Notes: generated by a model from the letters alone, not told the origin. A stretch of DNA of 64,000 nucleotides from an uncultured Candidatus Rokubacteria bacterium (GCA_963826115.1 CAWGVS010000010.1:1-64000); one strand, 5' to 3'. Positions 1-64,000 are shown, counted from the first letter of the stretch. Translations and numbers: made by a program.

Positions 1-2667
1 TCGACACCCTGGGCCCGCGGCTACGCACCGTGAAGGACGCCCGCGGGATCGTCTTCCTGACCAACGAGTACGACGCGAGCTCGGCGGATCAGCCGCCAGA
101 CCCAGGCCGACGGCACGACCTACCAGTTCGCCTACACGCTCGACGGCGCAGGGCCGAGTCACCCAGACCGACGTGACCGACCCACGCGGGCTCGTCCGCC
201 GGCTCACGTTCAACGCCGCCGGGCTACGTCCTGACCGACACCCGCGCGCTCGGGCCGCCCGGAGCAGCAGACGACCACCTCGAGCGCCAGGCGGGGACGC
301 ACTTCGTGACCGCCGCAGGTCGACGCCCTCGGCCGCCGGACCGAGTACGCCTACGACACCAAGGGGAACGTCACGAGCGTGACCCGGCTCGCCGGCACGG
401 CGAACGCCGTCACGACCACGCTCGCCTACGACCCGACCTTCAGCCAGGTCACGAGCGTCACCGATCCGCTGAATCACACGACGACCTTCGGGTACGACAC
501 GCGGGGCGCCCTGACCAGCGATCACCGATCCCCTGAATCACACCACGACGCTCACCCCGGACGCGACCGGGCAGCCGACGGCGATCACGGACCCGCTGAA
601 TCAGACCACCCAGCTCGCCTACGACACGGGCGACCTCGTGACGGTCACCGACCCGCTGGGCCAGGTCACGCGGCGGTTCGTGGACGGCGCCGGGCGCGTC
701 CTCCAGGTCACGGACCCGCTCGGCCAGGCGACGCGCCTACGCCTACGATCGCCTGAACCGCCTGACGTCGGTCGACCGACGCCCAGGGTGGGACGACGGC
801 CTTCGCCTACGACCCCAACGGCAATCTGCTGAGCGTCACCGACGCCGCCAGCCGCCAGACGACGTACACCTACAACAGCATGGACCGCCTCGAGACCCGG
901 ACCGATCCGCTGACCCACGCCGAGAGCTACCAGTACGACGCCAACGGGAACCTCACCCAGGTCACCGACCGGAAGAGCCAGGTCACGACCTTCACCTACG
1001 ACGGGCTCGACCGCCGCACCGTGACGACGTACCCGGGCTCGTCACGGTGACCGCCACCTACGACGCTGGCCACCGCGTCACCCAGCTCGTCGATACCGCG
1101 GCCGGCACGATCACCCGCGCCTACGACGGCCTCGACCGGCTCGACCCAGGAGACGACGCCCCAGGGCACCGTGAGCTACACCTACGATGCGGCCTCCCGC
1201 CGGGCCACGATGACGGTGGCCGGCCAGTCCGCCGTCAGCTACACCTTCGACAACGCCGACCGGCTGACCCAGGTCGCCCAGGGCAGCCAGACCGTCGGGC
1301 TCGCCTACGACGTCGCGAACCGCCGGACGAGCCTGACGCTCCCGAACGGCATCGTCCTCACGTACGCGTATGACCCCGCGATCGCAGCTCACCGGGCTGA
1401 CCTACGCGCTCGGCGGGACCACCGCTTGGGCAGCCTGACCTACACGCCCGACGCCGCCGGGAACCGCACCGCCATCGGCGGCCCCTGGGCGCGCACGAGC
1501 CTCCCCGCCGCCGTCGCCACGCACGAGCTACAATGCCAACCACCAGCAGCTGACCTTCGGCGGCGCGACGATGACCTACGATCTCAACGGCAATCTGGCG
1601 ACGCAGACCGACGGCGGGGCCACGCGGACGTACACCTGGAACCCCCGCAACCAGCTCACGGGGCTCAGCGGGCCCGGCCTCAGCGCGAGCTTCGGCTACG
1701 ACGCGCTGGGCCGCCGCTGGACGAAGACCGTGAACGCCGCGCAGACGGACGTGCTCTACGACGGCCTGAACCCGGTCCAGGAGGGCGTGCTCCCCACCAC
1801 GCCCTCGGCGAACCTCCTCACCGGCCTCGGCCTCGACGAGTTCTTCACCCGGACGGACGCCGCCGGGCTGCGCGCGTTCCTGTCGGACGCCCTCGGCAGC
1901 ACGGTCGCCCTCGCCGACGCCGCCGGCACGGTCCAGACCGCAGTACACCTACGCGCCGTTCGGCGAGACCACGGTCACCGGCGCCGCCAGCAGCAACCCC
2001 TATCAGTTCACCGGCCGCGAGAACGACGGCACCGGCCTCTACTACTACCGGGCGCGGTACTACCATCCGGGGCTCGGGCGCTTTGTCAGCGAGGATCCTA
2101 CTCGATTTGACACGGGCGACGCGAACCTCTATGCCTCCGTCGCCAATAGTCCCCTCAGCTACGTCGACGATCCATCAGGCCTAGACATCGCCGTTGTTGA
2201 GAACGGGCCGACACAAAGGGAACCCGATCGGCCACACTGCCATCGCGATAACGGGTCACGGTGTGTACAGCTTCGGAAATGAGTTCGACCCCGGCCTCAG
2301 TCTTGCGACCTACTTGCTGCGAGAAGCCTCCAGGCGCAACACAGTCGTCTATGTGATCAAAACTGACGCCAGGCAGGACGCGGCGGCGCTCGCTTACCTT
2401 GCGCAGGACCTTCCACAGCCACTCGGTAAGATCTGGGACAACTGCTCGGGTCGGTCGAACGCGGCGTTGGACGCGGCCGGGATCACGAGACTGGTTGCCG
2501 ACCCACGAATCACAGCGGCACTCGGTGTCGCGCCGCTGCTGGGGCTCACGAACCAACCAGGAACAGCCGGACTTCGTGCGGCAACTGCTGGTGCTGTGCG
2601 CTTTAACATGCCGAAGGGCACTACCTTCGTGCCGGTGGGCCTTCTGCCATTCGAACCGCACAAGTGA
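1..2667 (+). CDS. RHS/YD-repeat polymorphic toxin, 5'-truncated by the window edge and broken by many frameshifts; C-terminal toxin domain ~2184-2667
   Basis: YD repeats recur across frames (YDPTFSQVTSVTDPLNHTTTFGYD, YTYDAASRRATMT, YDALGRR). RHS core YQFTGRENDGTGLYYYRARYYHPGLGRFVSEDP and cleavage motif DPSGL (2169-2183) are present. GC drops after ~2100. Confidence 0.9.
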
Positions 2668-8371: not shown

Positions 8372-10426
8372 TCAGCCGGTTGGGACCGCGTAGAGCGTGG
8401 CCGCGCCTTCCTGGTGGAGAGCCGGCCAGGGAAGAGGTGGCGCCGCGCCGTCGCGGACGACGTAGCGCGCGCCGTAGCGCGCGGCGAGCGCGCGGAGCTC
8501 CGTCGGGCCGCGCGCGGCGTAGCCCCGCCCGAGCTGACGGAACGGCCAGGCGCACGGGGGCGCGTTGAGCTCGCGGAGGAACGTCCGCGGGTCCCGGCCC
8601 GGATAGCCCGCCACGTCGGCCACCCGCTGGACCCACTCCCGGATCGCGGTCCGGCCGAAGGGGACCGCGCCCATCTCGACGACGACCGCGCGCTCCGCGG
8701 CGCGGCGCCAGGCGAAGGCGTGGAGCGGGACCAGGAAGACGCCGTCGCGCTCGGTGTGGGCCCGTGCCCACGCCGCGAGGCGGTCGAGGTCGCTCGGCGG
8801 GGGGAGCCCCTCGCGGCCGGCGAGCCCGGGCGCCGTCACGACGATCGCCGCGGCCGTGCCCGCCAGCGCGAGCGCCGTGACCGCGAGCCGCCGCCCCCGC
8901 GCGGGGCCCGCGTCGAGCCACCCGGCGCGCCCGATCGCGGCCATCACGAGCACCGCTGCCGCCACGACGAGCCGCCGTCCATCGACGCCGCCGACGCCGC
9001 CCAGGTGGAGCGCGGCCAGCGCGGTGGCGGTGAGGAGCGCGATCCGCGCGTGGCGCGGCGAGAAGGCCGGCGCGATCGCGAGGCCGGCCAGGGCGAGGAG
9101 GGCGGGCAGCGAGCGACCGCCGAGGAGCGCGACCGTCGCGACCGCGGCAGCGAGCGCCTCGGCGACCGGGCCGCGGAGGAGCGCCCGGGCGAGGGGGCCC
9201 GCGATCAGGACGAGCGCGAGCGCCTTCAGGAAAACGCTGAGCCGCAGGAGCCGGAGCTCCACGGCGAGGCCGAGGGGGAGCACCTCGACGAACAGGACGC
9301 CCGCCACGAGGCCCGCGACGAGGACGGCGCCGATGGCCGTCACCGCCGCGCCCCGCTCCGCCTGGACCGCGTCGCCGGACTCCGACGGGATGCGCGCGGC
9401 GCGGAGTCCCTCCGCGAGCGCCGTCAGTCCCACGGACAGCGTCAGCTCGGGCCACACCTCCTGCCACGCCGGCGGGACCCGGCCCAGCGCCGCGAGGGCC
9501 ACGCCGATCGCGGCGCATCCCGCGAGGCCGAGCGCCACCGGCCACCGGCTCCGCCCGAGGCCGGCCAGGCGGAAGGCGAGGAGGCCGCTCAGGCCGAGGC
9601 TCACGAACGCGGCCACCTCCGCCGGGTCCTGGCATGAAGGGACGAAGTGCCAGGGGAACCGGAAGCGCGCCACGACGAGCTCGAGGAACTCGGCGTCGAG
9701 CGGCGGCCCCGAGCGGAGCACCGGCCACGTCGCCCCCACCGCGACCGCGACGTAGGCCGCCACCGCGAGGACCGGTCCCGCGGGACGCGGGAGCGCGGCG
9801 CCGTGGCGCCACCGCCACGCCGCGCGCGCGACCGAGCCGACCGCGATCAGCCCCGCGGCCTGGAGACCGACCTGGACGTGGACGAGGGTGGCCGCAATCA
9901 GCGCCAGCACCGCGGCGCGCTTCCCCGTGAGCCACCACGCGAGCGCCAGGATCGCCAGCGCCTTCGAGAGTGGCGCCGGGTTCAGCTGGGACCGGACGAG
10001 CCAGTGGTCGGCGAGGGCCGGGCCGGGGACGAGCACGCAGAGAATGGCTCCGAGGTAGCCCGCCGCGCGGCGCTCATGGAGCGCGAGGCCGAGCTGGTAG
10101 CCCGCCGTCGCCAGGAGCGCGACCTGGGCGATCCACAGGAGCAGCACCGCGGCCGGGATACCGGCAACGCGGGACAGGAGCGCGAGCGTGCCGAGATAGG
10201 CGGCCCGGACGCCCTCGCCACCGGCGTTCAGGAACCAGTCGCGCGCCAGGAACTCCGGATCGAGCGCGCGCTGGAGCTCGACGAGGTGGACGAGCTGGTT
10301 GCCGCGATCGAACGTGTAGCCGGCGTCAGAGGTCCACGTCCACGCGAGCACGACGAGGAGGAGCGCGGCGGCGATCGTCACGCGCTCCATCGCGCGGTCC
10401 GCCGGCCCCGCGGGGGCGGGGGTCAT
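8372..10426 (-). CDS. polytopic membrane protein, DUF6798-like (possible GT-C fold)
   Basis: About 12 or more TM segments; DPEFLARDWF, HVQVG, RFPWHF, and C-terminal WAR..T..DGVFLVP...WR..AERAVVV...VPF.....EW..R. Confidence 0.65.
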   Translation of the reverse strand: MTPAPAGPADRAMERVTIAAALLLVVLAWTWTSDAGYTFDRGNQLVHLVELQRALDPEFLARDWFLNAGGEGVRAAYLGTLALLSRVAGIPAAVLLLWIAQVALLATAGYQLGLALHERRAAGYLGAILCVLVPGPALADHWLVRSQLNPAPLSKALAILALAWWLTGKRAAVLALIAATLVHVQVGLQAAGLIAVGSVARAAWRWRHGAALPRPAGPVLAVAAYVAVAVGATWPVLRSGPPLDAEFLELVVARFRFPWHFVPSCQDPAEVAAFVSLGLSGLLAFRLAGLGRSRWPVALGLAGCAAIGVALAALGRVPPAWQEVWPELTLSVGLTALAEGLRAARIPSESGDAVQAERGAAVTAIGAVLVAGLVAGVLFVEVLPLGLAVELRLLRLSVFLKALALVLIAGPLARALLRGPVAEALAAAVATVALLGGRSLPALLALAGLAIAPAFSPRHARIALLTATALAALHLGGVGGVDGRRLVVAAAVLVMAAIGRAGWLDAGPARGRRLAVTALALAGTAAAIVVTAPGLAGREGLPPPSDLDRLAAWARAHTERDGVFLVPLHAFAWRRAAERAVVVEMGAVPFGRTAIREWVQRVADVAGYPGRDPRTFLRELNAPPCAWPFRQLGRGYAARGPTELRALAARYGARYVVRDGAAPPLPWPALHQEGAATLYAVPTG

Positions 10427-10690
10427 CGCGTCCCGACCGTACCACGGCGTTCGTTCCCGCTCGCCGTTTCACGGGACGGCGCGCCGCCCCGGTTCCGAGG
10501 GTCGTACGGGGGACCCGGCCGATCGGACCCGGGTCCCGCCGAAGGCTGCCAAGAAGGGTTGCCGTCCGCGCCGGACACGTGGGATTCTGTCGACGATCCG
10601 GGGGCCATGGCCACGGACGTGGTGAGTGTAACGTGTTGAGATCAAAAGACATTCCGCCGAATGAACCCAGCAGTCCGGGGCGCGATCCCG

Positions 10691-10706
10691 TGGCAATTCG
10701 CTTGCA
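10691..10706 (+). promoter_or_regulatory. sigma-54 (-24/-12) promoter
   Basis: TGGCAATTCGCTTGCA fits TGGCAC-N5-TTGCW with exact spacing, ~50 bp before the start codon. Confidence 0.65.
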
Positions 10707-10758
10707 TCCTCATCCTGCCGTCATGCGAGGAGGGGTCCGCCCGGCCCGCGGAGCCGCC

Positions 10759-12990
10759 ATGCTGGGCCTTCCGGTCCTCCTCTGGGCCTGCCTGTTCGCG
10801 GGGTCGGCGCCCTCGACTCCGGCGGCGTCCGGCGACCGGGTCGACTTCCGGCGGGACATCCAGCCGATCTTCCAGGGGTCCTGCACGAAGTGCCACGGCG
10901 CGGTCCGGCAGCGGAGCCAGCTCCGCCTCGACTCGCGGTCGTACGCGCTCCACGGCGGGGTCATGGGACCCGTGATCGTGCCCGGCGACAGCGCGCGGAG
11001 CCGCCTCGCGCAGCTGATCGGCCACGCGGACCCGGCGGAGCGGATGCCCCAGCCGCCCACCGCGCCGGCTCTCTCCTCCGAGAAGGTCCAGCTCATCCGG
11101 CGCTGGATCGATCAGGGCGCCGTCTGGCTTGAGACCCCGGGCGAGCCGCGGTTCGAGCCCCACTGGGCGTATCGCGAGCCGGTTCGCCCGAGCCCGCCGC
11201 CGGTGCGGACGGCGGGCTGGACGCGGAATCCCATCGACGCGTTCGTCCTCGCGCGGCTCGAGCGCGAGGGGCTGGCGCCCTCGCCCGAGGCGCCGCGCGC
11301 GACCCTCATCCGCCGGGTGAGCCTCGACCTCACCGGGCTGCCGCCGACGCCGGCCGAGGTCGACGCCTTCGTCGCCGACAGCCGGCCCGACGCCTACCAG
11401 CGCGTCGTCGACCGCCTCCTCGCGTCACCGCACTACGGGGAGCGCTGGGCGCGGTCCTGGCTCGACCTCGTGCGCTACGCGGACACGGACGGCGGGAGCT
11501 GGGACCGGCCCCGGTCGATGTGGCCGTACCGCGACTGGGTGATCCGGGCGCTCAACCAGGACATGCCCTTCACGCGCTTCACCATCGAGCAGATCGCCGG
11601 CGACCTCCTGCCGGGCGCCACCGCCAGCCAGCTCGTCGCGGCGGGCATGCACGCCAACACGACCGTGAACCAGGAAGACGGCGTCGACCCCGAGGAGGTC
11701 CGCTGGGAGGCGCTCATCGATCAGGTCGACACCACGGCGACCGTGTGGCTCGGCGCGACCCTCGCGTGCGCCCGCTGCCACAACCACAAGTACGACCCGT
11801 TCACGCAGAAGGACTACTACCGGTTCCTCGCGTTCTTCAACCACGCGGACATCTACGAGTACGAGCTCCCGCGCATCCCCGACCCGGCGCGCGCCGGCAA
11901 GCCCGCGATGACGTCGGTGGTCATCGAGCATCCGACCGGGACTCCGACCGCGAACCTGCGCGTCCGGGGAACCTTCACGCAAAAGGGCGAGCTCCTTTCC
12001 GCCGGCACGCCGCGAATCCTCCACCCCATGCGGCGCGGCTGGCCCGTGAACCGCCTCGGGCTCGCGTACTGGCTGGTCGACGCGGCGAACCCCGTCACGG
12101 CGCGCGTCGTCGTCAACCGCTACTGGGGGGAGATCTTCGGGCGCGCGCTCGCGGAGACCGCCGAGGATCTCGGCACCCAGGGGACGCGGCCGTCCCACCC
12201 CGAGCTTCTCGACTGGCTGGCGACGGAGTTCGTGCGCGGCGGCTGGAGCATGAAGCGGATCCAGCGCGCGATCGTCACCTCCGCCACGTACCGCCAGGCC
12301 TCGCGCGTGACGCCGGCGCTCCTCGAGAAGGACCCCGACAACGTCCTCCTGGCGCGAGGCGCGCGGTTCCGCCTGCCCGCCGAGACCGTTCGCGACGTCG
12401 CGCTCGCGGCCAGCGGCCTCCTCGATCCGCGGATCGGAGGCCCGAGCGTCTTCCCGCCGCTGCCCGACGACCACGGGTTCGTCCCCAACAACAAGGGGCA
12501 GGCGACCTGGAGGACGAGCGGGGGCGAGGACGCCCGTCGTCGCGGACTCTACACGTTCTGGCGGCGCACCGCGCCGTACCCGGCCTTCGCGAACTTCGAC
12601 GCGCCGAGCCGCGAGGTCGCGACCGTCCGGCGCGCGCGGACGAACACGCCGCTCCAGGCGCTGAGCGCGCTGAACGACCCGGCGTTCGTGGACGCGGCGC
12701 GGGGCCTCGCCCGCCGCGTCGCGCGCGAGGCGCCGGCGGAGCCCGCGGCCCGCGCGGCCCACGCCTTCCGGCTCTGCGTCGCCCGGGTGCCGGCCCCGGA
12801 GGAGGTCGAGCTGCTGGTCGCCGAGTACCGGCGCGAGCGCGACCACTTCGCGGCCGATCCGGCGGCGGCGCGGCAGGTCGTCGGGGACGAGCGCGGCGCG
12901 GTCGCCGACGCGGCGCTGACCGACCTGGCGGCGTGGACCGTCGTATCGAGCGTTGTCCTGAACCTCGACGAGACCCTGACGAAGGAGTGA
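10759..12990 (+). CDS. planctomycete-type cytochrome c / DUF1549 (PSCyt2) / DUF1553 (PSD1) protein
   Basis: Signal peptide; CTKCH and CARCH heme motifs; [59 protein letters not shown] before the ATG. Confidence 0.93.
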
Positions 12991-18267: not shown

Positions 18268-18283
18268 TGGCACATGCCTTGCT
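18268..18283 (+). promoter_or_regulatory. sigma-54 (-24/-12) promoter
   Basis: TGGCACATGCCTTGCT is a perfect consensus match, 75 bp before the ATG at 18358. Confidence 0.75.
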
Positions 18284-18357
18284 CGCCCCATCCGAAGCGC
18301 GACGACCGCGCCCGTTGCCCAGCCGTTCCCGACGAGGCGACGGGCCAGGAGGGGCCG

Positions 18358-49136: not shown

Positions 49137-49183
49137 GCTCGACCTCCGTCGCGCCCGCCCCGACGGTCGCGGGCGTCCTGTCG

Positions 49184-49199
49184 TGCAACCGGAGTGCCG
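49184..49199 (-). promoter_or_regulatory. sigma-54 promoter for the usp pair
   Basis: Minus strand CGGCACTCCGGTTGCA, 48 bp upstream of the ATG at 49136. Confidence 0.6.
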
Positions 49200-49236
49200 G
49201 CAGGGAGGCGGGGAGAACTCCGCGACTTTCCGCGCG

Positions 49237-54201: not shown

Positions 54202-55047
54202 ATGAGAAAGCTACTGAACGCGGAGCAGGTCGAGCGCTACCAGCGGGACGGGATCCTGTTCCCGATTCCGGTCCTGTCACCCGAGGAGACCGCGCACTTC
54301 CGCGCGGCGTTCGAGGAGGTGGCGGCGCGCCTCGGCGGCCGGCCGGTGGCGCAGGAGCTTGGGCACGCGCACGCCCACTTCCGGTGGGCGTACGACCTGG
54401 CGACCCACCCGAGGATCGTGGACGCCGTCGAGGACGTCCTGGGGCCCGACGTGCTCGTGTGGACCGTCTCGATCTTCCCGAAGTACCCGCGGGACCCGGG
54501 GTTCATCTCCTGGCACCAGGACGGCACGTACTGGGGGCTCGACTCGACCCAGGTCACGACGGCCTGGGTGGCGCTGACCGACAGCAGCGTCGACAACGGC
54601 TGCATGCGAGTCGTCCCGGGGTCGCACCGCCGGGCCATCCTCCCGCACCGCGACACCTACGCGGCCGACAACCGCCTGAGCCGCGGGCAGGAGATCGCGG
54701 TCGCCGTGGAGGAGGCCGAGGCCGTCGACGTCGTCCTGCGCGCCGGGGAGATGTCCCTCCACCACGTGAACATCATCCATGGCTCGAATCCGAACCCGTC
54801 GGACCGCTCGCGGATCGGCTTCGCGCCCCGCTACACGACGCCGCGGACCCGCCAGATCGACGGGGAATCGCCGACCGCGGTGCTGGCGCGCGGGCGCGAT
54901 GACTACGGCCACTTCAAGCTCCTGCCCGAGCCGCCGGCGCTCGACCTCGAGGCGGCGCTGGCCACCCAGCAGGCCGCAGCGGCGCGGTTCCTGTCCGAGG
55001 TCCGCAAGACGCGCGGGCACTACGCGGCGGGAGAGCGCCCGGCCTGA
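54202..55047 (+). CDS. phytanoyl-CoA dioxygenase (PhyH) family Fe(II)/2OG oxygenase
   Basis: WHQD, TAWVAL, NGCMRVVPGSH, LRAGEMSLHH...HGS.PN...R. Confidence 0.92.
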   Translation: MRKLLNAEQVERYQRDGILFPIPVLSPEETAHFRAAFEEVAARLGGRPVAQELGHAHAHFRWAYDLATHPRIVDAVEDVLGPDVLVWTVSIFPKYPRDPGFISWHQDGTYWGLDSTQVTTAWVALTDSSVDNGCMRVVPGSHRRAILPHRDTYAADNRLSRGQEIAVAVEEAEAVDVVLRAGEMSLHHVNIIHGSNPNPSDRSRIGFAPRYTTPRTRQIDGESPTAVLARGRDDYGHFKLLPEPPALDLEAALATQQAAAARFLSEVRKTRGHYAAGERPA

Positions 55048-55131
55048 GACGTCCGGCGGGTCCGGGCTCCGCGTCGCCGGGCGCCCCTCGGACCCACTGT
55101 CGCCGGCCCGGGCCTGGTCGAGCCCGCCGCC

Positions 55132-55251
55132 TGCACAGTCCACTGTGCAGGGTGCACTGTGGACTGTGCACTCGTCGTAGCCCGTTGAATCTTAAGGCGC
55201 TCTGGCCCCCCCGTTCCCCCTAGCCCCGCGCCCTGCCCAGTGGGGAGTGCA
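55132..55251. promoter_or_regulatory. enhancer-like dyad array: TGCAC-N8-GTGCA at 55132-55149 and 55153-55170, third degenerate copy at 55234-55251
   Basis: Dyads with a 21-bp period; a near-identical copy lies at 60382-60420; 160 bp upstream of a -24/-12 box. Confidence 0.7.
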
Positions 55252-55329
55252 CCGGCCCCCCCGATCCCTGAGCCGTGGTGTGCCCTCCAACTCCGCGTCG
55301 TCATGGGCGCGCGCCCTTCGTCGCCGGAC

Positions 55330-55345
55330 CGGCACGGGCCGTGCA
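55330..55345 (+). promoter_or_regulatory. sigma-54 promoter of the FN3/Lrp/S8/MBL operon
   Basis: CGGCACGGGCCGTGCA with exact GG-N10-GC spacing; same upstream layout as the promoter at 60569. Confidence 0.55.
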
Positions 55346-55437
55346 CCCCGGGGCTCCCGCGGGACCGGATCCAGGCGTCGTCGCGGCGCCGGGATCGCCT
55401 GCTGTCGGAGGCCACGCACGCGGCGAGGAGGCCGAGC

Positions 55438-56346
55438 ATGGGCTGGCTCGACGATCTGAGGAAGTGGCTGGGCAGCGGGGAGCGGCCGGCGCCGAACGGA
55501 TCGCCCGCGCCGCCACCCGCATTCACGGTCGGCCCACGCCCCTTCGGGGTGGGCCGGGACGTCGCCGGCGTCGAGTGGCAGACCGACAAGCGCACGAGCG
55601 CGCTGGTGCGCTATCGCGCCGCGGGCGCGGAGCCGTGGAGCGAGGTGGTCGACGAGAGCCGCCAGCGCGACCACCAGCGCACGCTGTCGCCGCTGACGCC
55701 GGACACGGAGTACCAGGTCGAGGTGACCGCGACCGTGCCACAGCGCGGCGGCGGCATGGTGTCGCGGACGATCACGCTCCGGACCCTGCCCGTGGCCGCG
55801 CCTCCCCCCCCGCCACCCGACCACGTCCCGCCGTCTCCGCCGCCCGACGACGGCGGCGAGCCCATCCCGCATCCGCCCATGACCGTGAGCGTGCTCGCGG
55901 AGCAGGCGGTGTGGCTCCCGGGCACGCTCACCCGGGTCGATCCGGCCTTCGCGTCGTGGCTCCGGCGCACCTGTGTCGGCGGCGCGACTCGGCTCGTGCT
56001 CGCCGATCTCGGCCAGATCCCCGGCCGGATGCGCCAGGCCGGCTTCCGGGGTCGGGACAACGCGCTCTGGTACACCCTGTCGCGCTCCTACGCGGAGTGG
56101 AACTGGCACGGGGACCCGCACGACCCCGACCGCCACCTGAGCGACCAGCGGCGGGAGCTCCACGACTTCTGGTCGAACTACATCGACGCCGTGCTCGCGG
56201 CCATGACGGCCGCGCCCCAGACGACCGCGCTCATCCTCGACAACGATGGCCCCGACCGCTGCGGCAAGGAGCTGGGGGAGTACACACAGCGCCAGATGCG
56301 CAACGCGGCCGGGCGCGTCGAGCTGGGCCGCTTCCACCACGACTGA
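55438..56346 (+). CDS. hypothetical protein: FN3-like domain, Pro-rich linker and unknown C-terminal domain
   Basis: VEWQTDKRTSALVRY...H.RTLSPLTPDTEYQVEV...LRT fits an FN3 pattern; PPPPPPDHVPPSPPP linker; GAGGAGG RBS. Confidence 0.75.
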   Translation: MGWLDDLRKWLGSGERPAPNGSPAPPPAFTVGPRPFGVGRDVAGVEWQTDKRTSALVRYRAAGAEPWSEVVDESRQRDHQRTLSPLTPDTEYQVEVTATVPQRGGGMVSRTITLRTLPVAAPPPPPPDHVPPSPPPDDGGEPIPHPPMTVSVLAEQAVWLPGTLTRVDPAFASWLRRTCVGGATRLVLADLGQIPGRMRQAGFRGRDNALWYTLSRSYAEWNWHGDPHDPDRHLSDQRRELHDFWSNYIDAVLAAMTAAPQTTALILDNDGPDRCGKELGEYTQRQMRNAAGRVELGRFHHD

Positions 56347-56386
56347 CCGCGCGGCCGCGGGCGCGGCCGCCACGGAGGGCGATCGG

Positions 56387-56629
56387 ATGGTGCGCGCCTA
56401 TCTCCTCGTCGAAGCCGATCCGGCCGGGGCCACGAACCTCCTGGCGCGCGTGCGGAGCGTGAGCCTGGGCAACTGCCTCCTGCTCGCCGAGGAGCTGATG
56501 CCCGGCGAGATCATCGCGCATCTGCACTGCACCGAGCGGGCGGACGTCACCCGGGCCGTCGTCGAGGACATCGCCCGGCTCGACGGTGTCCGGCGCACCA
56601 CGCTCCTGCTCCTGACGGACCAGGGGTAG
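56387..56629 (+). CDS. stand-alone Lrp/AsnC ligand-binding (RAM)-like domain protein
   Basis: MVRAYLLVEADP...IARLDGVRRTT.L; GGAGG RBS. Confidence 0.65.
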   Translation: MVRAYLLVEADPAGATNLLARVRSVSLGNCLLLAEELMPGEIIAHLHCTERADVTRAVVEDIARLDGVRRTTLLLLTDQG

Positions 56630-56661
56630 CGTCTCCCGCGCGCCACCCGGGAAGGGCGACC

Positions 56662-58692
56662 ATGGCGAGCAAGCGCACGCACGCCGGGCGGCCGCAGCGG
56701 CTCGACCGGGATCTCATGGAGCAGCTCCTCTTCGGGACCGGCCGGGCGCGCCGGTTCACGCAGGACTCGCCGGTGCTGCCCGACGTGTGGCTCGAGTACG
56801 CGAAGCAGCCGGCCGAGGACGGTGGGCCCCCCGCGGGGACGGCCCGCGGCCGGAGCCCCGCCGCGCTCCTGCCGCCCGTGAAGCTCCTCCTGACACCCTA
56901 CCGCGAGGTGGCGGCGGGCGAGGTCCGCCGCACCGTCCGCGAGCGCCTGACCGCCGAGCGCCAGACCGCCGCGTGGCGCGCCTTCGGCCACGCGCCGTCG
57001 CCCTTGCCCCGGGTCGTCTACAACCTGTCCACGGTGGCCGCGACGCTCCACTTCGAGGACCTGGTGCGCGTCGTGCTGCCGATGACGGAATGGTGGCACC
57101 GTCTCACCCGGGAATGGAGCGTCGACGACATCCGGGACGAGACCTCGCAGCGCTGGCTCGCGCAGGCGATCCGCGACCCCGAGCACCCGCCGATCGCGCC
57201 GGGGCCGGCGAGCGTGAAGCGGCGGCTCCGGGTGCGCTCCGATCTCCTGTGGATGATCCGCGTGGTGGGGGCGCTCGCGATCGTGCGACGGGGCGGCCGG
57301 CTGCCCCGCGTCTTCACCGAGTCGAAGGAGGGTGTCGCGGCGGCGACGGAGGCCGACTGGCTCCAGCTGATCCGGGCCGTCGCCGACCTGGTGCGCGGGG
57401 TCGCGTCGGAGGCGCGCCCCATGGTCTACTCCGTCAGCATCAACCGCGAGGCGTCGCCCACCGTGGCGCGCTCGACCCTGGCCATCAAGGCCGACGCCGC
57501 TCGCCGCCTCTTCGCCATCTCGTGCCGGGAGATCACGTGGGCGGTCATCGACAGCGGAGTCGACGCCCGCCATCCGGCCTTCCGCGCGCGCGACCCGAAG
57601 AGCGAGGCGCCGGTGAGCGACCGGCCGTTCGTCGACGCGGCCGGGCGCGCCGGGAACTGCACCCGCGTGGTCGAGACCTACGACTTCACGGAGATCGACC
57701 TCCTCCTCGACCCCGACTCGCCCGACGTGCCCGCCGAGCTCCGGAAGCGGCTCGGCGACGGGTCGCCCGACGCCCGAAAGCTTCGCCAGCAGCTCGAGGA
57801 GCTGTACGGCGCCCTGAGCCGGGGCCGCGCGATCGACTGGGGCCAGGTCGCCCCCTTCATCCGCGTGCCGCACGCGGACGGCCAGTACCGCCGGCCGGAG
57901 AACGACCACGGCACGCACGTGGCCGGGATCCTGGCCGGCGACTGGCGGAAGGGGGAGGCGGGCGGGCTCCTCGAGGAGGACCTGATCGGCGTCTGCCCCG
58001 ACCTGCGCCTCTACGACTTCCGGGTCCTGGACGAAGCTGGCCGCGGGGACGAGTTCGCGGTCATGGCGGCGCTCCAGTTCGTGCGCTACCTGAATTCCAC
58101 GAACGAGTACGTCGTCGTGCACGGCGCCAACCTGAGCCTCTCGATCCCCCACGAGATCTCGAACTACGCGTGCGGCCGCACGCCGGTGTGCGACGAGTGC
58201 GACCGGGTGGTGTCGTCGGGGGTGGTGGTGGTCGCGGCGGCCGGCAACCAGGGCCGCCAGCGGTACACGACGGAACAGGGACGGGTCGCCGAGGCCTATC
58301 TCTCCATCAGCATCACCGACCCCGGCAACGCCGAGCAGGTCATCACCGTCGGCGCCACCCACCGGTACCGGCCGCACACGTACGGCGTCAGCTACTTCTC
58401 GAGCCGCGGCCCGACCGGCGACGGCCGGATCAAGCCGGACCTGGTGGCCCCCGGCGAGAAGATCACGGCGCCGGTGCCCGAGGGCGCCTTCGGCCTGAAG
58501 GACGGGACCAGCATGGCGGCGCCGCACGTGAGCGGCGCGGCCGCGCTCCTCATGGCCCGGCACAACGAGCTGGTCGGCCGGCCGGGCCGCCTGAAGCAGA
58601 TCCTCTGCGAGACGGCGACCGACCTCGGCCGCGAGCGCTACTTCCAGGGGGCCGGGATGCTCGACGTCCTCCGCGCGCTCCAGTCGGTCTGA
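56662..58692 (+). CDS. S8 (subtilase) serine peptidase, no signal peptide, long N-terminal extension
   Basis: Catalytic triad in AVIDSG, HGTHVAGI and GTSMAAPHVSG; also VVAAAGN and SSRGPT.DGR.KPDLVAPG. Confidence 0.95.
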   Translation: MASKRTHAGRPQRLDRDLMEQLLFGTGRARRFTQDSPVLPDVWLEYAKQPAEDGGPPAGTARGRSPAALLPPVKLLLTPYREVAAGEVRRTVRERLTAERQTAAWRAFGHAPSPLPRVVYNLSTVAATLHFEDLVRVVLPMTEWWHRLTREWSVDDIRDETSQRWLAQAIRDPEHPPIAPGPASVKRRLRVRSDLLWMIRVVGALAIVRRGGRLPRVFTESKEGVAAATEADWLQLIRAVADLVRGVASEARPMVYSVSINREASPTVARSTLAIKADAARRLFAISCREITWAVIDSGVDARHPAFRARDPKSEAPVSDRPFVDAAGRAGNCTRVVETYDFTEIDLLLDPDSPDVPAELRKRLGDGSPDARKLRQQLEELYGALSRGRAIDWGQVAPFIRVPHADGQYRRPENDHGTHVAGILAGDWRKGEAGGLLEEDLIGVCPDLRLYDFRVLDEAGRGDEFAVMAALQFVRYLNSTNEYVVVHGANLSLSIPHEISNYACGRTPVCDECDRVVSSGVVVVAAAGNQGRQRYTTEQGRVAEAYLSISITDPGNAEQVITVGATHRYRPHTYGVSYFSSRGPTGDGRIKPDLVAPGEKITAPVPEGAFGLKDGTSMAAPHVSGAAALLMARHNELVGRPGRLKQILCETATDLGRERYFQGAGMLDVLRALQSV

Positions 58693-58713
58693 CGCGGGTC
58701 AGGGAAGGCCGCG

Positions 58714-59865
58714 ATGCTGGTGCTCGAGGCACTGCGCGCGCGGTTCGGCGACGCGCTCCTCCTGCACTCCGGCACCACGGCGAAGCCACAGCTCACCGTC
58801 ATCGACGGCGGACCGCCCGGCGTCTACAACGATGCGCTCCGGCCGAGGCTCGAGGCGCTCCGGGCCGAACGCGGCCTCGACGACCGGACGCCCCTCGACA
58901 TCGAGCTCATGATGGTGAGCCACATCGACGACGACCACATCTCGGGCCTCCTCGAGCTGGCGCAGAAGCTCAACGAGCGTCGGGAGAGCGGCCAGCCGCT
59001 CCCGTGGCGGATCCGCCGCGTCTGGCACAATTCGTTCGACGACATCCTCGACAACGACGACCTCAAGGTCGGCGGCGGGGCGTCCACCATGAGCCCCGCG
59101 TCGCTCGACGATTTCCTGGCGCCCGAGGGCTCGCTGATCCTGGCCAGCGTCCCGCAGGGACGGCAGCTCCGGAAGCTGCTCGGCGCCCTGACTCTCGGCG
59201 GCAACCCCCCCTTCAAGGGTCTGGTCTCGGCGGATGGCCTCGCGAAAGCCGTGACGGTGGGCGACCTCAGGATCACGGTGGTGGCGCCCCGGAAGGCCGA
59301 GCTGGCGGCGCTCCAGAAGAAGTGGAACAAGGAGATCGCGCCGCTCCTCGAGAAGGAGCGGAGCCGGCCGCGGCTCGCGGAGATCGCCGCCTACGTGGAC
59401 ACGTCGGTGCACAACCTGTCCAGCATCGTCGTCCTCGTCGAGTCGCAGGGGAAGCGCATCCTCCTGACCGGCGACGGGCGCGGCGACCACACGCTCGCGG
59501 GGCTCAGGAGCGCGAAGCTCCTCGAGGACGGCAAGCTCCGTCTCGATGTGCTGAAGCTGCCGCACCACGGTAGCGAGCGCAACGTCGCCCCCGACTACTT
59601 CGAGACGGTCGTCGCGAAGCACTACGTCGTCTCGGCGGACGGAAAGTTCGACAATCCCGACGTCGGGACGCTCCAGATGATCTCCGCGGCGCGCCGGGAC
59701 GACGACTTCACCATCCACCTCACGTATCCGACAGGCGAGTTCGACGTCCCCCGGATCGGCGAGAAGGTCGAGACGTTCTTCGCGGGCGAGCGGCGAGCCG
59801 GCCGCGCCTACCGCGTGGTGGCGCGGCCGCCGGGCGAGCTGTCGGTGCGCGTTGCGGTCGCGTAG
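58714..59865 (+). CDS. ComEC/Rec2-like metallo-beta-lactamase-fold hydrolase
   Basis: GDALLL, IDGGP, SHIDDDHISG, N.SSIV, LLTGD, LKLPHHGS.RN. Confidence 0.9.
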   Translation: MLVLEALRARFGDALLLHSGTTAKPQLTVIDGGPPGVYNDALRPRLEALRAERGLDDRTPLDIELMMVSHIDDDHISGLLELAQKLNERRESGQPLPWRIRRVWHNSFDDILDNDDLKVGGGASTMSPASLDDFLAPEGSLILASVPQGRQLRKLLGALTLGGNPPFKGLVSADGLAKAVTVGDLRITVVAPRKAELAALQKKWNKEIAPLLEKERSRPRLAEIAAYVDTSVHNLSSIVVLVESQGKRILLTGDGRGDHTLAGLRSAKLLEDGKLRLDVLKLPHHGSERNVAPDYFETVVAKHYVVSADGKFDNPDVGTLQMISAARRDDDFTIHLTYPTGEFDVPRIGEKVETFFAGERRAGRAYRVVARPPGELSVRVAVA

Positions 59866-59893
59866 CCGCCGGCGGGCGGTCGTGCGCGGGCGG

Positions 59894-60298
59894 TCAGGAC
59901 CGAGAGCGACGCGGACCCGACCGGGCGGGGCGCGGCGCGCCCGGCGGCACGACCATGAAGCCGAGCACGCGCATGAGCGCCTCGGTGGGATCGGACGCCG
60001 CGCGACGTCGGTCGCTGTGCCGCCGGTCGTCGTCGACCCGGCGCGGCAACCGGCGCCGCTCACCGACGCGCCGGTCCACGATCACGCGCCCGCGCCCGGC
60101 GGACTCCTGGCGCTCCCGGAGGAAGTCGGCGAGGTCGGTGAGGGCCCGGCTGACGATCACGAGATCGCTGGCGGCGGGGCCCAGCCGGGGACGGCGGCGT
60201 GGCGCGCGCGCGCGGGTCACGCCCGCGCGCTTCGCCGTCCGACGCAGGGACCCCGAGCGATGAGTCGGCGAAGCGTGCCGGCGGCGCGCGCGTTTCAT
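59894..60298 (-). CDS. Arg-rich hypothetical protein with VIVDRR..ERR...DRR motif
   Basis: LVIVSR...L..FL...VIVDRRVGERRR...DRRHSDRR...LGFMVV pattern; GAAGG immediately precedes the ATG. Confidence 0.55.
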   Translation of the reverse strand: MKRARRRHASPTHRSGSLRRTAKRAGVTRARAPRRRPRLGPAASDLVIVSRALTDLADFLRERQESAGRGRVIVDRRVGERRRLPRRVDDDRRHSDRRRAASDPTEALMRVLGFMVVPPGAPRPARSGPRRSRS

Positions 60299-60381
60299 CC
60301 TTCGAGGATGCCAAAGGAGTCGCCGACGGCCAAAGCTTATCGGCTCTCGCCGCCGTCGACCCGAGGACGCCCGCGCGCGGG

Positions 60382-60502
60382 TGCACAGTCCACAGGGCAC
60401 CCTGCACAGTCCACAGTGCAGGCGTGGTAAGCGCCCGCCACATATAGCGTCTCCCGCCGTCTCCGCGCGGCCGTGAGCGGGACCTGCCACCCAGGCAGTG
60501 CA
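60382..60502. promoter_or_regulatory. second enhancer-like dyad array (60382-60399, 60403-60420; third weak copy 60485-60502)
   Basis: TGCACAGTCCACAG occurs twice with a 21-bp period. About 37 of 41 bases match the reverse complement of 55131-55171. Confidence 0.7.
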
Positions 60503-60568
60503 GGTGCCGCTCCGGCGGGCCCCCGGCTAACTCCGCGTACCGTCAAGCGTCCCGAGCCCCGAGGGCCG

Positions 60569-60584
60569 TGGCACTCGGGTTGCT
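60569..60584 (+). promoter_or_regulatory. sigma-54 promoter of the patatin operon
   Basis: TGGCACTCGGGTTGCT is a perfect consensus match, ~50 bp before the GTG. Confidence 0.78.
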
Positions 60585-60635
60585 CCGCCGATCCACGCGG
60601 TCGCGTCGTTCCGAGACCGTTCCGGAGGAGGCGCT

Positions 60636-61751
60636 GTGCCGTTCGGCGTCGAGGGAGTCGAGTCCGGCGTGGGCCTCGCGCTGTCGGGGGGAGGGTTCCG
60701 CGCGACCCTGTTCCACTGCGGCGCGCTCTGGCGTCTCGACGAGCTCGGCTTCCTCCCGAAGCTCGACCGCGTCTCGAGCGTGTCCGGCGGCTCGATCACG
60801 GCGGGCGTCCTGGCGACGCGCTGGACGGAGCTGCGCTTCGCCGGCGCCACGGGCGCGAACCTCCGGGAGACGGTCATCGCGCCGCTGCGGGCGTTCTGCC
60901 ACCGCACCGTGGACGTCCCGGCCATCGGGATCGGGACCCTCCTGCCGGGCCGGCGTCCGGCCGACCTGCTCCAGGCCGCGTACGCGGAGCACCTCTTCGG
61001 GGCGGCCGCGCTCCACGACCTGCCCGACCGCCCGCGCTTCGTGTTCAACGCGACGAACCTCGCGACGGGGGTGAGCTTCCGGTTCTCGAAGCCGTACGCC
61101 GGCGACTACCGGATCGGCCTCATCCCGAAGCCGACGTTCCCGGTCGCGCTCGCGGTGACCGCGTCGAGCGCCTTCCCGCCGTTCCTCTCGCCGGTCGTCG
61201 TCCGGCCGGACCCCGACGCGTTCCAGCGAGTTCCGGGCGCCGACCTCTTCGACCAGGTCGCGTACCGCGAGCGGCTGCTCCTGACCGACGGCGGCGTCTA
61301 CGACAACCTCGGGCTCGAGACCGTGTGGAACCGCTACGACACGGTGCTGACGAGCGACGCCGGCGCGCCGTTCGGCCTGGCGCTCGACCCCGAGACGTCG
61401 TGGCACGGTCAGGTGCTCCGCGCGCTCGACATCGCGACCAACCAGGCGCGCGCGCTTCGCAAGCGGATCCTGATCGACGACTACACGCGGGGCGTGCGGA
61501 AGGGCGCGTACTGGGGCATCGCCACCGACATCCGGGCGTACGGGCTCGCCGACGCGCTGCCGGTGTTGCCGGCGCGCATCGCGGAGCTCGCTGCCCTGCG
61601 CACCCGGCTCGACGACTTCTCCGACGTGGAACAGGGCCGGCTCATCAACTGGGGATACGCCGTGTGCGACGCCGCCATGCGCCGGCACGTCACCGCCGGC
61701 GCCGGCCCCGCCCCGGCATGGCCCGTGCCCGAGCTTCGGCTGGACCAGTAG
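60636..61751 (+). CDS. patatin-like phospholipase
   Basis: ALSGGGFRA, SSVSGGS nucleophile elbow, ASSAFP, DGGVYDNLG; GGAGGAGG RBS. Confidence 0.93.
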   Translation: MPFGVEGVESGVGLALSGGGFRATLFHCGALWRLDELGFLPKLDRVSSVSGGSITAGVLATRWTELRFAGATGANLRETVIAPLRAFCHRTVDVPAIGIGTLLPGRRPADLLQAAYAEHLFGAAALHDLPDRPRFVFNATNLATGVSFRFSKPYAGDYRIGLIPKPTFPVALAVTASSAFPPFLSPVVVRPDPDAFQRVPGADLFDQVAYRERLLLTDGGVYDNLGLETVWNRYDTVLTSDAGAPFGLALDPETSWHGQVLRALDIATNQARALRKRILIDDYTRGVRKGAYWGIATDIRAYGLADALPVLPARIAELAALRTRLDDFSDVEQGRLINWGYAVCDAAMRRHVTAGAGPAPAWPVPELRLDQ

Positions 61752-61779
61752 GCAGCCGCAGGAACCGGAGGACCGTCTG

Positions 61780-61902
61780 ATGAAGCGCTCCGCGTCCCGC
61801 CCGTCTTCCCGCGCGCCTCGATCGCCCGCGCCCCCGGCTCCCGCCGCCGGTCCCGGCCGGCTCCGCCGGATGTGCAGCATCCGCGAGGGCTCGCCGCGGT
61901 GA
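61780..61902 (+). CDS. putative 40-aa small protein, translationally coupled to the next gene
   Basis: GGAGGA RBS; MKRSASRPSSRAPRSPAPPAPAAGPGRLRRMCSIREGSPR*; its TGA overlaps the next GTG (GTGA). Confidence 0.4.
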   Translation: MKRSASRPSSRAPRSPAPPAPAAGPGRLRRMCSIREGSPR

Positions 61903-63269
61903 GCGGGGCGCGGGCCCTCGTACTCGGCGTGCTCCTGTGCGCCGTCCTCCTCGGGGCGGCGCCCGGGCGGGCGCAGGACGCCGATGCGGACAAGCGGGCG
62001 GCCCTCAAGCGCATCGCGGGCTTCGCCGCGCTCATCGACAAGACGGACGTCGAGATCCGGCGGAAGCAGTGGGAGTACCGGCTCCTCCTGTCGTTCGCGC
62101 TCGCCGTCGGCATCCTCGGCGCGGCGAGCGCGGCGGCCCAGAAGTTCGAGGGCACGAAGGCGCGGGTCGCCACGCTCGCCATGGGCGTGCTGATCTCCGC
62201 CCTGACCTTCTCGACGAACACGCTCTTCCCGGACGACCACCGGGCGCTCAAGCGCAACGTCGAGCGGGCGCGCCACGAGCGCGACGTGGGCAAGGTGGTG
62301 GCCGACTCCGCGGACCTGTCGGTCAGCACCGAGGCGCTCCTCCAGCTCGAGCAGCAGGTGCAGGCGCGGTACGCGGCGATCGTCTCCGCGCTGGGGCCGG
62401 ACTCGAAGCAGGCGTCGCTCGCGCCGGCGAGCGCGTGGGCGGCGGCGCCGGGAGCCCCGGAATCCCCGGAGTGCCAGCGCTGGCCGTCGAGCGGCGGCCT
62501 GTGCTTCTCCGGGATCGGCCGCAGCGCGTACCCCGAGCAGGCGCGGCAGAACGCGCTCCAGATCGCGGTCGACCAGGCCTCCCAGTACGTCGCGCGGCAG
62601 GTCGGGAGCCAGCGCCCGCCGGAGGCGTTCCGGGACTACGTCGAGCGGTTCGCGCGCGTGGAGGAGGTGTACCCGAGCCGGGACCTCCGCGCCGGCCGGG
62701 AGTTCGGGTACGTCGCCATCCTCACGCTGAACTCGCGCTTCGCCGACCCGAAGGCCGTGGCCGCCTCGAGCATCGAGCCCCGGACGATCACCTCCGGCGA
62801 CCCCGTGCTCATCCGCGGCTGGCGCGCTCCGCCGGGCGGCCGCCTGCCGGGCGACCCCGCCGGCGAGGCCTGGTTCCGGATCGAGGGACAGGATGTGCGC
62901 GCCGACCGCGGCGCGGACGGGGCGAGCTCGTGGGTGTTCGGGAAGCGTGGCGGCGCGCGGGGCCCTCTCCAGCACGGCGACCTCGTCTCGCTGCGCGGCG
63001 TGTGGGGCGATCCCTACGTCACCGTCGAGCCCGACGGGCGGCTCCTCGCGTACCGCGGTCCCTCGGAGGCCGCGCTCTTCCGCCTCGAGCGGCGCGGCGG
63101 TGGGGAGCTGGTCCGCGAGGGCGACGCCTTTGCGCTCGTGGATCCCCGGAGCGGGCGCGTCCTCCGGGCGGACCGCGGACGCCTGGTGATGAGGCCTCCG
63201 GAGGATGCCGCGTCCACGCGCTTCGCGGCCGTGCTCGTGCCGCGCATCGGCACGGCTGCGAAGTACTGA
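61899..63269 (+). CDS. multidomain membrane protein: signal peptide, 2-TM hairpin, LPP20-like segment, fascin/beta-trefoil-like C-terminus
   Basis: Signal ending GRAQ; two TM helices; FSGIGRS....ARQNAL..A; repeated GDxV/F motifs (GDPVLIR, GDLVSLR, GDAFAL). Confidence 0.7.
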   Translation: MSGARALVLGVLLCAVLLGAAPGRAQDADADKRAALKRIAGFAALIDKTDVEIRRKQWEYRLLLSFALAVGILGAASAAAQKFEGTKARVATLAMGVLISALTFSTNTLFPDDHRALKRNVERARHERDVGKVVADSADLSVSTEALLQLEQQVQARYAAIVSALGPDSKQASLAPASAWAAAPGAPESPECQRWPSSGGLCFSGIGRSAYPEQARQNALQIAVDQASQYVARQVGSQRPPEAFRDYVERFARVEEVYPSRDLRAGREFGYVAILTLNSRFADPKAVAASSIEPRTITSGDPVLIRGWRAPPGGRLPGDPAGEAWFRIEGQDVRADRGADGASSWVFGKRGGARGPLQHGDLVSLRGVWGDPYVTVEPDGRLLAYRGPSEAALFRLERRGGGELVREGDAFALVDPRSGRVLRADRGRLVMRPPEDAASTRFAAVLVPRIGTAAKY

Positions 63270-63305
63270 ACCCGCGCTGCCCAGGCCCGAGGGAGGGAGA
63301 ACGCG

Positions 63306-63755
63306 ATGGCGACGACCAAGACCCGGAAGGGCCCGTGCAATCCGGCCTGCACCACGATCGTCCGGTTCATGACCGACAAGGAGGTCCCGCCCAACGTCGG
63401 GGTCAGCATCCCCGGCTACAAGTCAGTGGACGGCTACCGCCACCTGAACGTCTTCGTCCGCTTCAGCCAGGAGACGTCGGGCGAGCCGCCAGTGGACCTG
63501 GGCGTGCTCTTCGCCTTCGACGTCCAGGGGACCCTGAGCGCCCGCCGCTACGTGAACCTCGAGGCGAACGTGCCGGGCCCCCAGAGCACGAACTTCATCG
63601 AGGTGTCGGGGAGCGGCTCGTGGCACGGCAGCCCGCACAACATCAGCAGCTACATGGCGCGGCTGCCGGTCATGGGGCCCTTCGCATGGGTGGTCGTCTA
63701 CAACCGCGCGCTGGTCAAGCGCGTCGTGACCGTCTGGGGCTACCTCGTCTCGTGA
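63306..63755 (+). CDS. hypothetical beta-rich protein
   Basis: GGAGGGAG RBS; coding-like codon usage; no motif recognised. Confidence 0.75.
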   Translation: MATTKTRKGPCNPACTTIVRFMTDKEVPPNVGVSIPGYKSVDGYRHLNVFVRFSQETSGEPPVDLGVLFAFDVQGTLSARRYVNLEANVPGPQSTNFIEVSGSGSWHGSPHNISSYMARLPVMGPFAWVVVYNRALVKRVVTVWGYLVS

Positions 63756-63790
63756 GTGCCCCGCGTCCCGTTCCCGACAAGGAGACCCTC

Positions 63791-64000
63791 ATGGCCGACC
63801 ACGGTGTGTCCGGGCGTCGGGTGTGGCTGTCCGCGTGCGCCGCCCTCCTCCTGCTGCTCGGCGGGTGCGGGAAGGACGCGCCCCGGCCGGGCACGGTCCT
63901 CGACGAGGCCAGCCGCGCGGGCCGCACCGCGGCGTCGTTCCCGGCGGCGGCCGAGGACTACTTCCACGACATGGACGGCGGCGGCGCCTTGACCCGTGAG
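63791..64000 (+). CDS. lipoprotein, 3'-truncated by the window edge; N-terminus resembles large cytochrome-c-type proteins
   Basis: AAGGAG RBS; lipobox LGGC; PGTVLDEA.RAGR.AASFPAA.EDYFHDMDGG. Confidence 0.65.
   Translation, partial: MADHGVSGRRVWLSACAALLLLLGGCGKDAPRPGTVLDEASRAGRTAASFPAAAEDYFHDMDGGGALTRE

Follow-up and report, generated by a model that had tools for sequence, protein, structure and literature searches.

Two neighbouring operons for a candidate protease–hydrolase–phospholipase module share a conserved sigma-54-type enhancer cassette in a Rokubacteria genome

The window analysed here is a 64-kilobase (kb) stretch of DNA, around 73% G+C, from an uncultured Candidatus Rokubacteria bacterium (GCA_963826115.1, CAWGVS010000010.1:1-64000). 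An earlier note, made from the sequence alone, had drawn attention to two adjacent gene clusters with a common regulatory layout at positions 55132 to 64000. We called genes from reading-frame composition and open reading frames (ORFs), and found that two neighbouring transcription units each start with one shared regulatory cassette. At both sites, designated A and B, the cassette runs in the same order: two 18-base-pair (bp) palindromes, an AT-rich box, a third palindrome, an AAC box and a promoter of the -24/-12 type. Behind site A lie the genes for an FN3-like protein (g1), a small protein (g2), an S8 subtilase and a hydrolase with the metallo-beta-lactamase (MBL) fold (unit A); behind site B lie those for a patatin-like phospholipase and two proteins of no known family (g6 and g7), followed by the start of a lipoprotein gene (g8) (unit B; Table 1). 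The coordinates previously assigned to all these elements proved correct when the window was re-scanned, and the gene calls for FN3-like protein, subtilase, MBL hydrolase and patatin were upheld by Pfam, that for the lipoprotein by its lipobox. The conserved AT-rich box between the second and third palindromes had been overlooked.

Table 1. Genes and regulatory elements around sites A and B (positions in the window; identity, mean column identity in alignments of 8 sequences for site A and 7 for site B; aa, amino acids)
Feature	Position	Strand	Description
PhyH	54202-55047	+	gene preceding site A
Site A dyad 1	55132..55149	none	perfect palindrome TGCACAGT-CC-ACTGTGCA; identity 0.94
Site A dyad 2	55153..55170	none	1 mismatch to palindrome; 21 bp after dyad 1; identity 0.98
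Site A AT-rich box	55175..55198	none	GTAG...TGAAT..T.AGGCG; identity 0.85 versus 0.61 for the rest
Site A dyad 3	55234..55251	none	degenerate in the window, near-perfect in relatives; identity 0.92
Site A AAC box	55287..55298	none	cCAACT...; CAAC core alone common to relatives
Promoter A	55330..55346	+	cGGCACgggccgTGCAc, cGGCAC-N5-gTGCA; predicted start near 55356; identity 0.94
g1	55438..56346	+	302 aa; weak FN3/Ig-like N-terminal domain, C-terminal part without known family
g2	56387..56629	+	80 aa; no family
S8 subtilase	56662..58692	+	676 aa; family-specific N-terminal domain of ~290 aa
MBL-fold hydrolase	58714..59865	+	383 aa; ComEC-like; putative protease-activated pro-nuclease
gX	59894..60298	-	134 aa; arginine-rich; conserved core of ~80 aa
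Site B dyad 1	60382..60399	none	identity 0.99
Site B dyad 2	60403..60420	none	21 bp after dyad 1; identity 0.96
Site B conserved box	60428..60447	none	TAAG...CCG..GAATA; identity 0.84
Site B dyad 3	60485..60502	none	degenerate; identity 0.89
Site B AAC box	60527..60538	none	CTAACyCCGCrT; identity 0.93
Promoter B	60569..60585	+	TGGCACtcgggTTGCTc, TGGCAC-N5-TTGCT; predicted start near 60595; identity 0.93
Patatin-like phospholipase	60636..61751	+	371 aa; Patatin E 4.1e-21 (Pfam)
g6	61872..63269	+	465 aa; hydrophobic N-terminal segments (by eye); no family
g7	63306..63755	+	149 aa; no family (no Pfam, PADLOC or NCBIfam match)
g8 (lipoprotein)	63791..64000	+	~830 aa, start only; lipobox LLGGC; window end cuts the gene

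The palindromes had been described as TGCAC-N8-GTGCA dyads, and these are present as stated: without mismatch at 55132, 55153 and 60403, and with one at four further positions, 60382 and 55234 among them. With up to one mismatch the window holds seven matches against 1.38 expected, a number reached in 1 of 100 shuffles. The real site, however, is longer and more specific. Ideally it reads TGCACAGT-NN-ACTGTGCA, palindromic over all 18 bp (8 + 2 + 8), and this form matches the window five times at up to three mismatches against 0.05 expected. At the same tolerance the 18-mer TGCACAGTCCACAGTGCA gave five matches (both strands counted) on four sites and none elsewhere in the 64 kb, with an expectation of 0.03 and no match for this in any of 100 shuffles. 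At both sites the third palindrome starts 81-82 bp past the start of the second, and the end of the second lies 160 bp (site A) or 149 bp (site B) before the GG of the promoter, in agreement with the distances given before.

For comparison, a scan of one genome per species returned 335 relatives of the MBL protein, of which the best 80 loci were analysed. The seven closest (L001-L006 and L056), all from metagenome-assembled genomes (MAGs) of Methylomirabilota/'Rokubacteria', are 77-84% identical to the window in the best matching segment and have the SIS–FAA–PhyH flank in common; in a quick tree of the MBL protein, the window and L001-L005 form one fully supported clade. Site A is present in all seven and site B in all six that reach that far (L002 ends first). 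A scan of the loci for a 14-base core of the palindrome gave 17 copies, every one of them at the two orthologous places in these 7 of the 80 loci; the other 73, which carry the protease–hydrolase pair, hold none. The enhancer layout belongs to one orthologous island and its lineage, not to the protease–hydrolase module.

In the site alignments, the dyads and promoter boxes had mean column identities of 0.89-0.99 and the two auxiliary boxes of 0.84-0.93, with 0.61-0.64 in the remaining columns, and the DNA between the conserved blocks has diverged among the closest relatives. Across the window and these relatives, dyad 1 and dyad 2 are spaced by 21-22 bp and dyad 2 and dyad 3 by 81-83 bp. Dyad 3 precedes the GG by 92-97 bp at site A; at site B the interval is 82-86 bp, shorter by about one helical turn, as expected if the helix face matters. 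An enhancer for an NtrC-family activator calls for at least two dimer-sized inverted repeats in helical phase 80-250 bp upstream, and each site has three such palindromes. The shared enhancer and promoter layout is real, with its position, order and spacing kept in relatives, and this makes one common regulator for both gene clusters the simplest reading. The AT-rich box of site A is a possible bending site. The box AACTCCGCGT, reported as identical at the two sites, is exact at 55289 and 60529 and nowhere else in the window; as a conserved box in this written form it was rejected, since at site A the relatives keep just the yAAC/CAAC core. At site B the same region is kept in relatives as CTAACyCCGCrT.

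It could be argued that the palindromes are repetitive extragenic palindrome (REP)-like sequences, ends of mobile elements, RNA hairpins or terminators with no role at a promoter, given that dyads 1 and 2 of site A together make a 39-bp hairpin just after the PhyH gene and that unit A has a copy of the cassette on either side, in direct orientation. At site B, however, the dyads are direct rather than inverted, sites A and B share functional blocks only, and copies are confined to two places in the 64 kb and in ~130 kb of related DNA (~190 kb of the lineage). Scans of positions 54900-64000 detected no terminator-like site and no sigma-70 promoter, and Rfam gave no match in the whole window. 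We consider this explanation very improbable.

Both promoters have GG and GC doublets 10 bp apart in a sequence close to TGGCAC-N5-TTGCW, and the doublets keep this spacing in 8/8 sequences of site A and 7/7 of site B, where the alignment reads TGGCAy-N5-TTGCT throughout (7/7 sequences). The strict core GGCAC-N5-TTGC occurs three times in the window against 0.25 expected (at 18268, at 49198 on the minus strand and at site B). Each of the three lies between genes and is directed towards the start of a gene close by, and the organism therefore appears to use such promoters; literature searches on sigma-54 in this phylum listed no relevant paper. The TGCACAGT palindrome is not found upstream of the other two promoters of this type, which are TGGCAC-N5-TTGCT at 18268-18284 (plus strand), 75 nucleotides (nt) before the gene of a signal-peptide protein, and cGGCAC-N5-TTGCA at 49183-49198 (minus strand), 48 nt before a universal stress protein gene (usp). 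Around 25 nt upstream of the usp promoter, an inverted copy of AACTCCGCGT with one mismatch (AACTCCGCGA, 49216-49225) may be there by chance.

The cargo behind the cassette varies while the cassette itself is kept. In L001, site A stands immediately before the S8 gene. In L004 (1164-5896), it drives first a 946-amino-acid protein that begins with an Amidase_2 (PGRP-like) domain and has a caspase domain in its C-terminal part; a 629-amino-acid protein of no family comes next, ahead of g1. In L003, site B drives a gene for an astacin-like peptidase, and patatin is absent. The island's cargo is swappable.

We next consider the proteins themselves. The S8 subtilase matched Peptidase_S8 (Pfam, E 1.9e-40) and the PADLOC 'subtilase' model (1.3e-46), and its triad D297, H416 and S617 and oxyanion N529 are invariant in 49 sequences. 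Its predicted model (predicted template-modelling score 0.86) includes a confidently modelled N-terminal domain; compared with the PDB, the model retrieved subtilisins only, with pro-forms ranked first, and no assignment for that domain. An exhaustive search with the N-terminal domain found 620 cluster representatives. Among the 150 matches listed the domain is N-terminal and the full-length proteins have ~600-870 amino acids; it was not found in longer proteins, although this is weak evidence.

The MBL protein has a Pfam Lactamase_B domain and matched the PADLOC MBL model of LmuA over its full length (2.9e-48), as well as the Avs1a and RTasMBL models. Against the Avs1a model of NCBIfam it scored 140.6 bits (E 5.6e-41) and did not reach the cut-off of 420, and by these matches the protein is a member of a related clade and not an Avs1a equivalog. 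Its nearest solved relative by profile is the MBL domain of ComEC (E 7.3e-05), its metal-binding residues H70, D72, D74, H75, H284 and H285 are invariant in 22 sequences, and it has many close homologues of equal length. In L056 (7909-11155), the S8 and MBL genes gave only partial or split tblastn matches despite 81% DNA identity in the best segment, which suggests frameshifts or assembly errors.

The small and accessory proteins are less readily placed. The fn3 match of g1 (Pfam, E 4.9e-05) lies below the cut-off, and the ESM Atlas yielded only FN3-type leads, all under 0.9; g1 is present in six of the seven closest relatives and g2 is kept in four. No Pfam family matched g2, g6, g7 or the N-terminal part of the subtilase even at E 5, and the labels 'Lrp-like' (for g2) and 'beta-trefoil' given earlier found no Pfam support. 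Searches with g6, which is present in L004 and L006, gave no Pfam, PADLOC or NCBIfam match and no usable ESM Atlas match, and g7 has a homologue in L056. Full-length relatives of g8 (L003, L005 and L006) have 819-910 amino acids, the L006 protein showing only weak, sub-threshold cytochrome c matches, and a GMC oxidoreductase and a 433-amino-acid protein follow. This syntenic block may lie outside the regulon, as the right flank of the island.

Effector modules activated by proteases have come to be viewed as a main design of bacterial immunity, and in every case studied, to our knowledge, a sensor is fused to the protease and control is exerted post-translationally. Among such modules with an MBL effector (HamMAB, Avs1, Lamassu hydrolase–protease and Canu), the likeness to the island lies in a ComEC-like MBL encoded beside a protease and in the full-length hidden Markov model match of the island protein to the LmuA and Avs1a models. 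In contrast to their trypsin or caspase proteases, which are fused to a STAND, helicase or SMC sensor, the island S8 protease is stand-alone with an N-terminal domain of its own, and no such sensor gene lies nearby in the neighbourhoods of relatives or the flanks. The island also differs in its order of protease then MBL, in its apparent transcriptional control by sigma-54 and in having patatin as a frequent third gene. The Canu loci, in the consulted part of their description, further resemble it in accessory Ig-like and small proteins (PMC12799240).

According to the portions of two recent studies consulted here, MBL proteins of this type are gated pro-nucleases freed by a partner trypsin-like or caspase protease (Tuck et al. 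2025; PMC12799240), and undergo double cleavage and have Zn-dependent nuclease activity on double-stranded DNA (Evans et al. 2025; PMC12642450). In the same portion, Evans et al. name a third MBL clade, encoded beside S8 subtilisin-like proteases (PMC12642450). The pair of S8 subtilase and ComEC-like MBL is thus already described, as 'MBL clade 3', and the earlier statement that no described system has this combination holds only in part. Judged by titles and the opening lines of abstracts, none of the papers listed in a literature search describes the triad of patatin, subtilase and metallo-beta-lactamase as a defence system. In the papers searched, no description was found either of the sigma-54 and enhancer control, of one cassette serving two operons whose cargo can be exchanged, or of the gX gene introduced below. 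When PADLOC 2.0 was run, a check recommended by the earlier note, no complete known defence system emerged and only the subtilase and MBL models matched; the LmuB, STAND, RT and helicase models matched none of eight window proteins, nor, subsequently, nine proteins of relatives and gX.

The patatin-like phospholipase of unit B has the motifs GGGxR, SxSGG and DGG, intact in 18 of 18 aligned homologues, its serine motif being S-x-S-G-G and not G-x-S-x-G. A patatin gene adjoins the S8–MBL pair in 23 of the 80 loci, in several phyla: 15 times upstream (patatin–S8–MBL) and 8 times downstream, including the lineage of the window. This recurrent linkage supports the earlier idea that the two clusters belong together, and with it a functional connection between units A and B. 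In the quick MBL tree, for which 17 of the 24 patatin-linked rows (23 loci and the window) satisfied the ORF filter, the loci with patatin do not group together but are scattered. S8 and MBL are neighbours in 75 of the 80 loci, and of the remaining five, four have a contig end immediately upstream of the MBL gene; apart from these two genes, none is common across phyla in the 80 loci. The pair is found as a unit in at least eight phyla, with a tree at variance with taxonomy. A single locus of the 80 comes from a cultured strain, Qipengyuania mesophila YG27 (L058, 7009-11077); it carries the patatin–S8–MBL triad and makes this strain a tractable model for bench work. With CapV-containing cyclic-oligonucleotide-based antiphage signalling systems (CBASS) the island shares a patatin-like phospholipase as a likely membrane-damaging effector; it differs in that neither a cyclase nor a nucleotide-sensing domain is encoded nearby, and its patatin has no match among the PADLOC models.

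Sigma-54 promoters are silent without their activator. We give an even chance to the proposal that one NtrC-type activator, encoded elsewhere, binds the palindromes and fires both promoters, switching on the protease/pro-nuclease pair together with the phospholipase. Such an enhancer-binding protein would bind the three palindromes as dimers, oligomerise, and loop to the sigma-54 polymerase waiting at each promoter, so that both would open on one signal. Unit A would then supply the FN3-like protein, the small protein, the cytoplasmic S8 subtilase and the ComEC-like MBL hydrolase, and unit B the patatin together with envelope proteins that belong to no known family. By homology with the characterised MBL–protease modules, the subtilase would most likely cut the MBL protein to release a DNA nuclease, to which the patatin would add membrane damage, and the two units together would kill the cell or arrest its growth, in the manner of abortive infection. 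Because sigma-54 promoters are silent without an activator, these dangerous enzymes would be kept fully off until it fires. In this reading, one switch probably puts into action the soil bacterium's equipment for self-destruction or defence.

Several observations weigh against this proposal. The window yielded no cognate AAA+ activator with a GAFTGA loop, and neither did the 80 loci within 10 kb: the GAFTGA/Walker A pattern gave three loose chance matches, none of them in the window, in Methylomirabilota loci or in an activator-like context, and Pfam scans of 34 window ORFs and 30 ORFs of relatives detected no Sigma54_activat domain or other obvious regulator. Of the earlier claim of a single activator encoded outside the window, a common regulator stands as the simplest reading; the activator itself was found neither in the window nor in the flanks of relatives, and it may lie elsewhere in the genome. 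Upstream of the module, the loci among the 80 outside the seven close relatives showed no consistent -24/-12 box, and in L057 and L079, Methylomirabilota with paralogous modules, neither such a box nor the palindrome was seen. L001 and L003 lack patatin though site B is kept. The N-terminal domain of the subtilase, as modelled, may be the module's own, real sensor, or a pro-region. Finally, the consulted portions of Evans et al. and Tuck et al. contained no experiments on a nuclease or defence role of clade 3.

A further candidate for the protein that binds the palindromes, also at odds with a distant activator, lies beside site B. The 770-bp 'gap' that separates the MBL gene from patatin holds gX, a gene that the first reading of the sequence had overlooked, and site B lies between gX and patatin. 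The gene is read towards the MBL gene and away from patatin, and starts 84 bp from dyad 1 of site B. It is lineage-specific, being present in 7/7 of the closest Methylomirabilota loci, always beside site B, and in 0/73 of the others; it is under purifying selection and has 63 homologues in the protein set, one being a hypothetical protein of a Methylomirabilota MAG. Neither Pfam nor PADLOC matched it, and its AlphaFold model is poor (predicted local distance difference test score 62), with two helices and mostly disordered. A candidate minus-strand sigma-54 box for gX at 60495-60508 was rejected, as it is not conserved in relatives. A palindrome, CATCCT-TCG-AGGATG at 60296-60310, overlaps the gX start codon, with the same DNA (TTTGGCATCCTCGAAG, minus strand) in all relatives, and could bury that codon in a hairpin of the RNA.

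gX could itself be the binding protein. The palindromes would then be operators of an ordinary dimeric regulator, a repressor or class I activator and possibly gX, with the likeness to -24/-12 promoters secondary or coincidental; the association of gX with site B, its purifying selection and the lack of an enhancer-binding protein near the module in the window and the 80 loci all fit this view. It does not readily explain why the -24/-12 boxes are as well conserved as the dyads and keep a fixed spacing to them, or why the dyads lie ~100-215 bp upstream of the boxes, a distance typical of enhancers and far for an operator. Moreover, gX has no DNA-binding family match and a largely disordered model, and site A has no gX-like neighbour. 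An ordinary regulator therefore seems unlikely to us.

The identity of the half-sites bears on another question, namely what the putative regulon responds to. TGCAC/GTGCA is reminiscent of the NtrC site, and the island resembles NtrC enhancers such as that of glnAp2 in having palindromes with these ends on one helix face 100-215 bp before GG-N10-GC; it differs from them in a palindrome of 18 rather than 17 bp and in a cargo unrelated to nitrogen metabolism. A starvation or developmental response, for instance under NtrC-like control, might thus induce degradative enzymes for scavenging or autolysis rather than an immune or suicide module. The cargo consists of hydrolases only, joined in relatives by an astacin-like peptidase; genes of metabolism (SIS, FAA hydrolase, PhyH and GMC oxidoreductase) surround the island, and PADLOC recognised no complete system in it. 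Yet the S8, MBL and patatin proteins have no signal peptide (by eye), the MBL protein matches defence-system MBL models over its full length, the S8–MBL pair moves as a unit through at least eight phyla, and one relative adds a caspase–Amidase_2 protein typical of conflict systems. We hold a scavenging or autolytic role to be improbable.

Other systems offer precedents for control of a conflict or repair operon by a dedicated regulator that holds it off until a stress signal arrives, namely the WYL regulators CapW/BrxR, and RtcR, a CARF-domain sigma-54 activator of rtcBA. Their regulators are encoded next to the operon, whereas the island has none nearby and two operons share its sites.

Elsewhere in the window, a short ORF near its start (766-1050, plus strand) encodes three RHS repeats (Pfam E 1.2e-27) and is possibly part of a larger RHS/toxin gene. 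At 9970-12990 (plus strand), a large protein with PSCyt1, PSCyt2 and PSD1 domains, of the planctomycete cytochrome type, is encoded in this Methylomirabilota-like genome.

The 18-bp site is sharply defined and offers a means of tracing the activator and the other members of its regulon, and the patatin, S8 and MBL genes are a candidate three-gene system in many soil phyla and one cultured strain. If both promoters do answer to one distant activator, a stand-alone module behind a strictly activator-dependent promoter, shared with a phospholipase operon, would represent a second safety strategy, and would mark out the enhancer-binding protein as a candidate immune or stress sensor. A bolder idea, which we put forward tentatively and consider somewhat doubtful, is that the sensor of infection or damage is this distant sigma-54 enhancer-binding protein, not fused to the protease, and that immunity is organised as a small regulon. 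One activator would then license, by transcription alone, a set of swappable latent killers: the S8-activated MBL nuclease and the patatin and, in relatives, the caspase–Amidase_2 protein and the astacin-like protease. In such a regulon, zero-leak sigma-54 promoters would take the place of the post-translational trigger.

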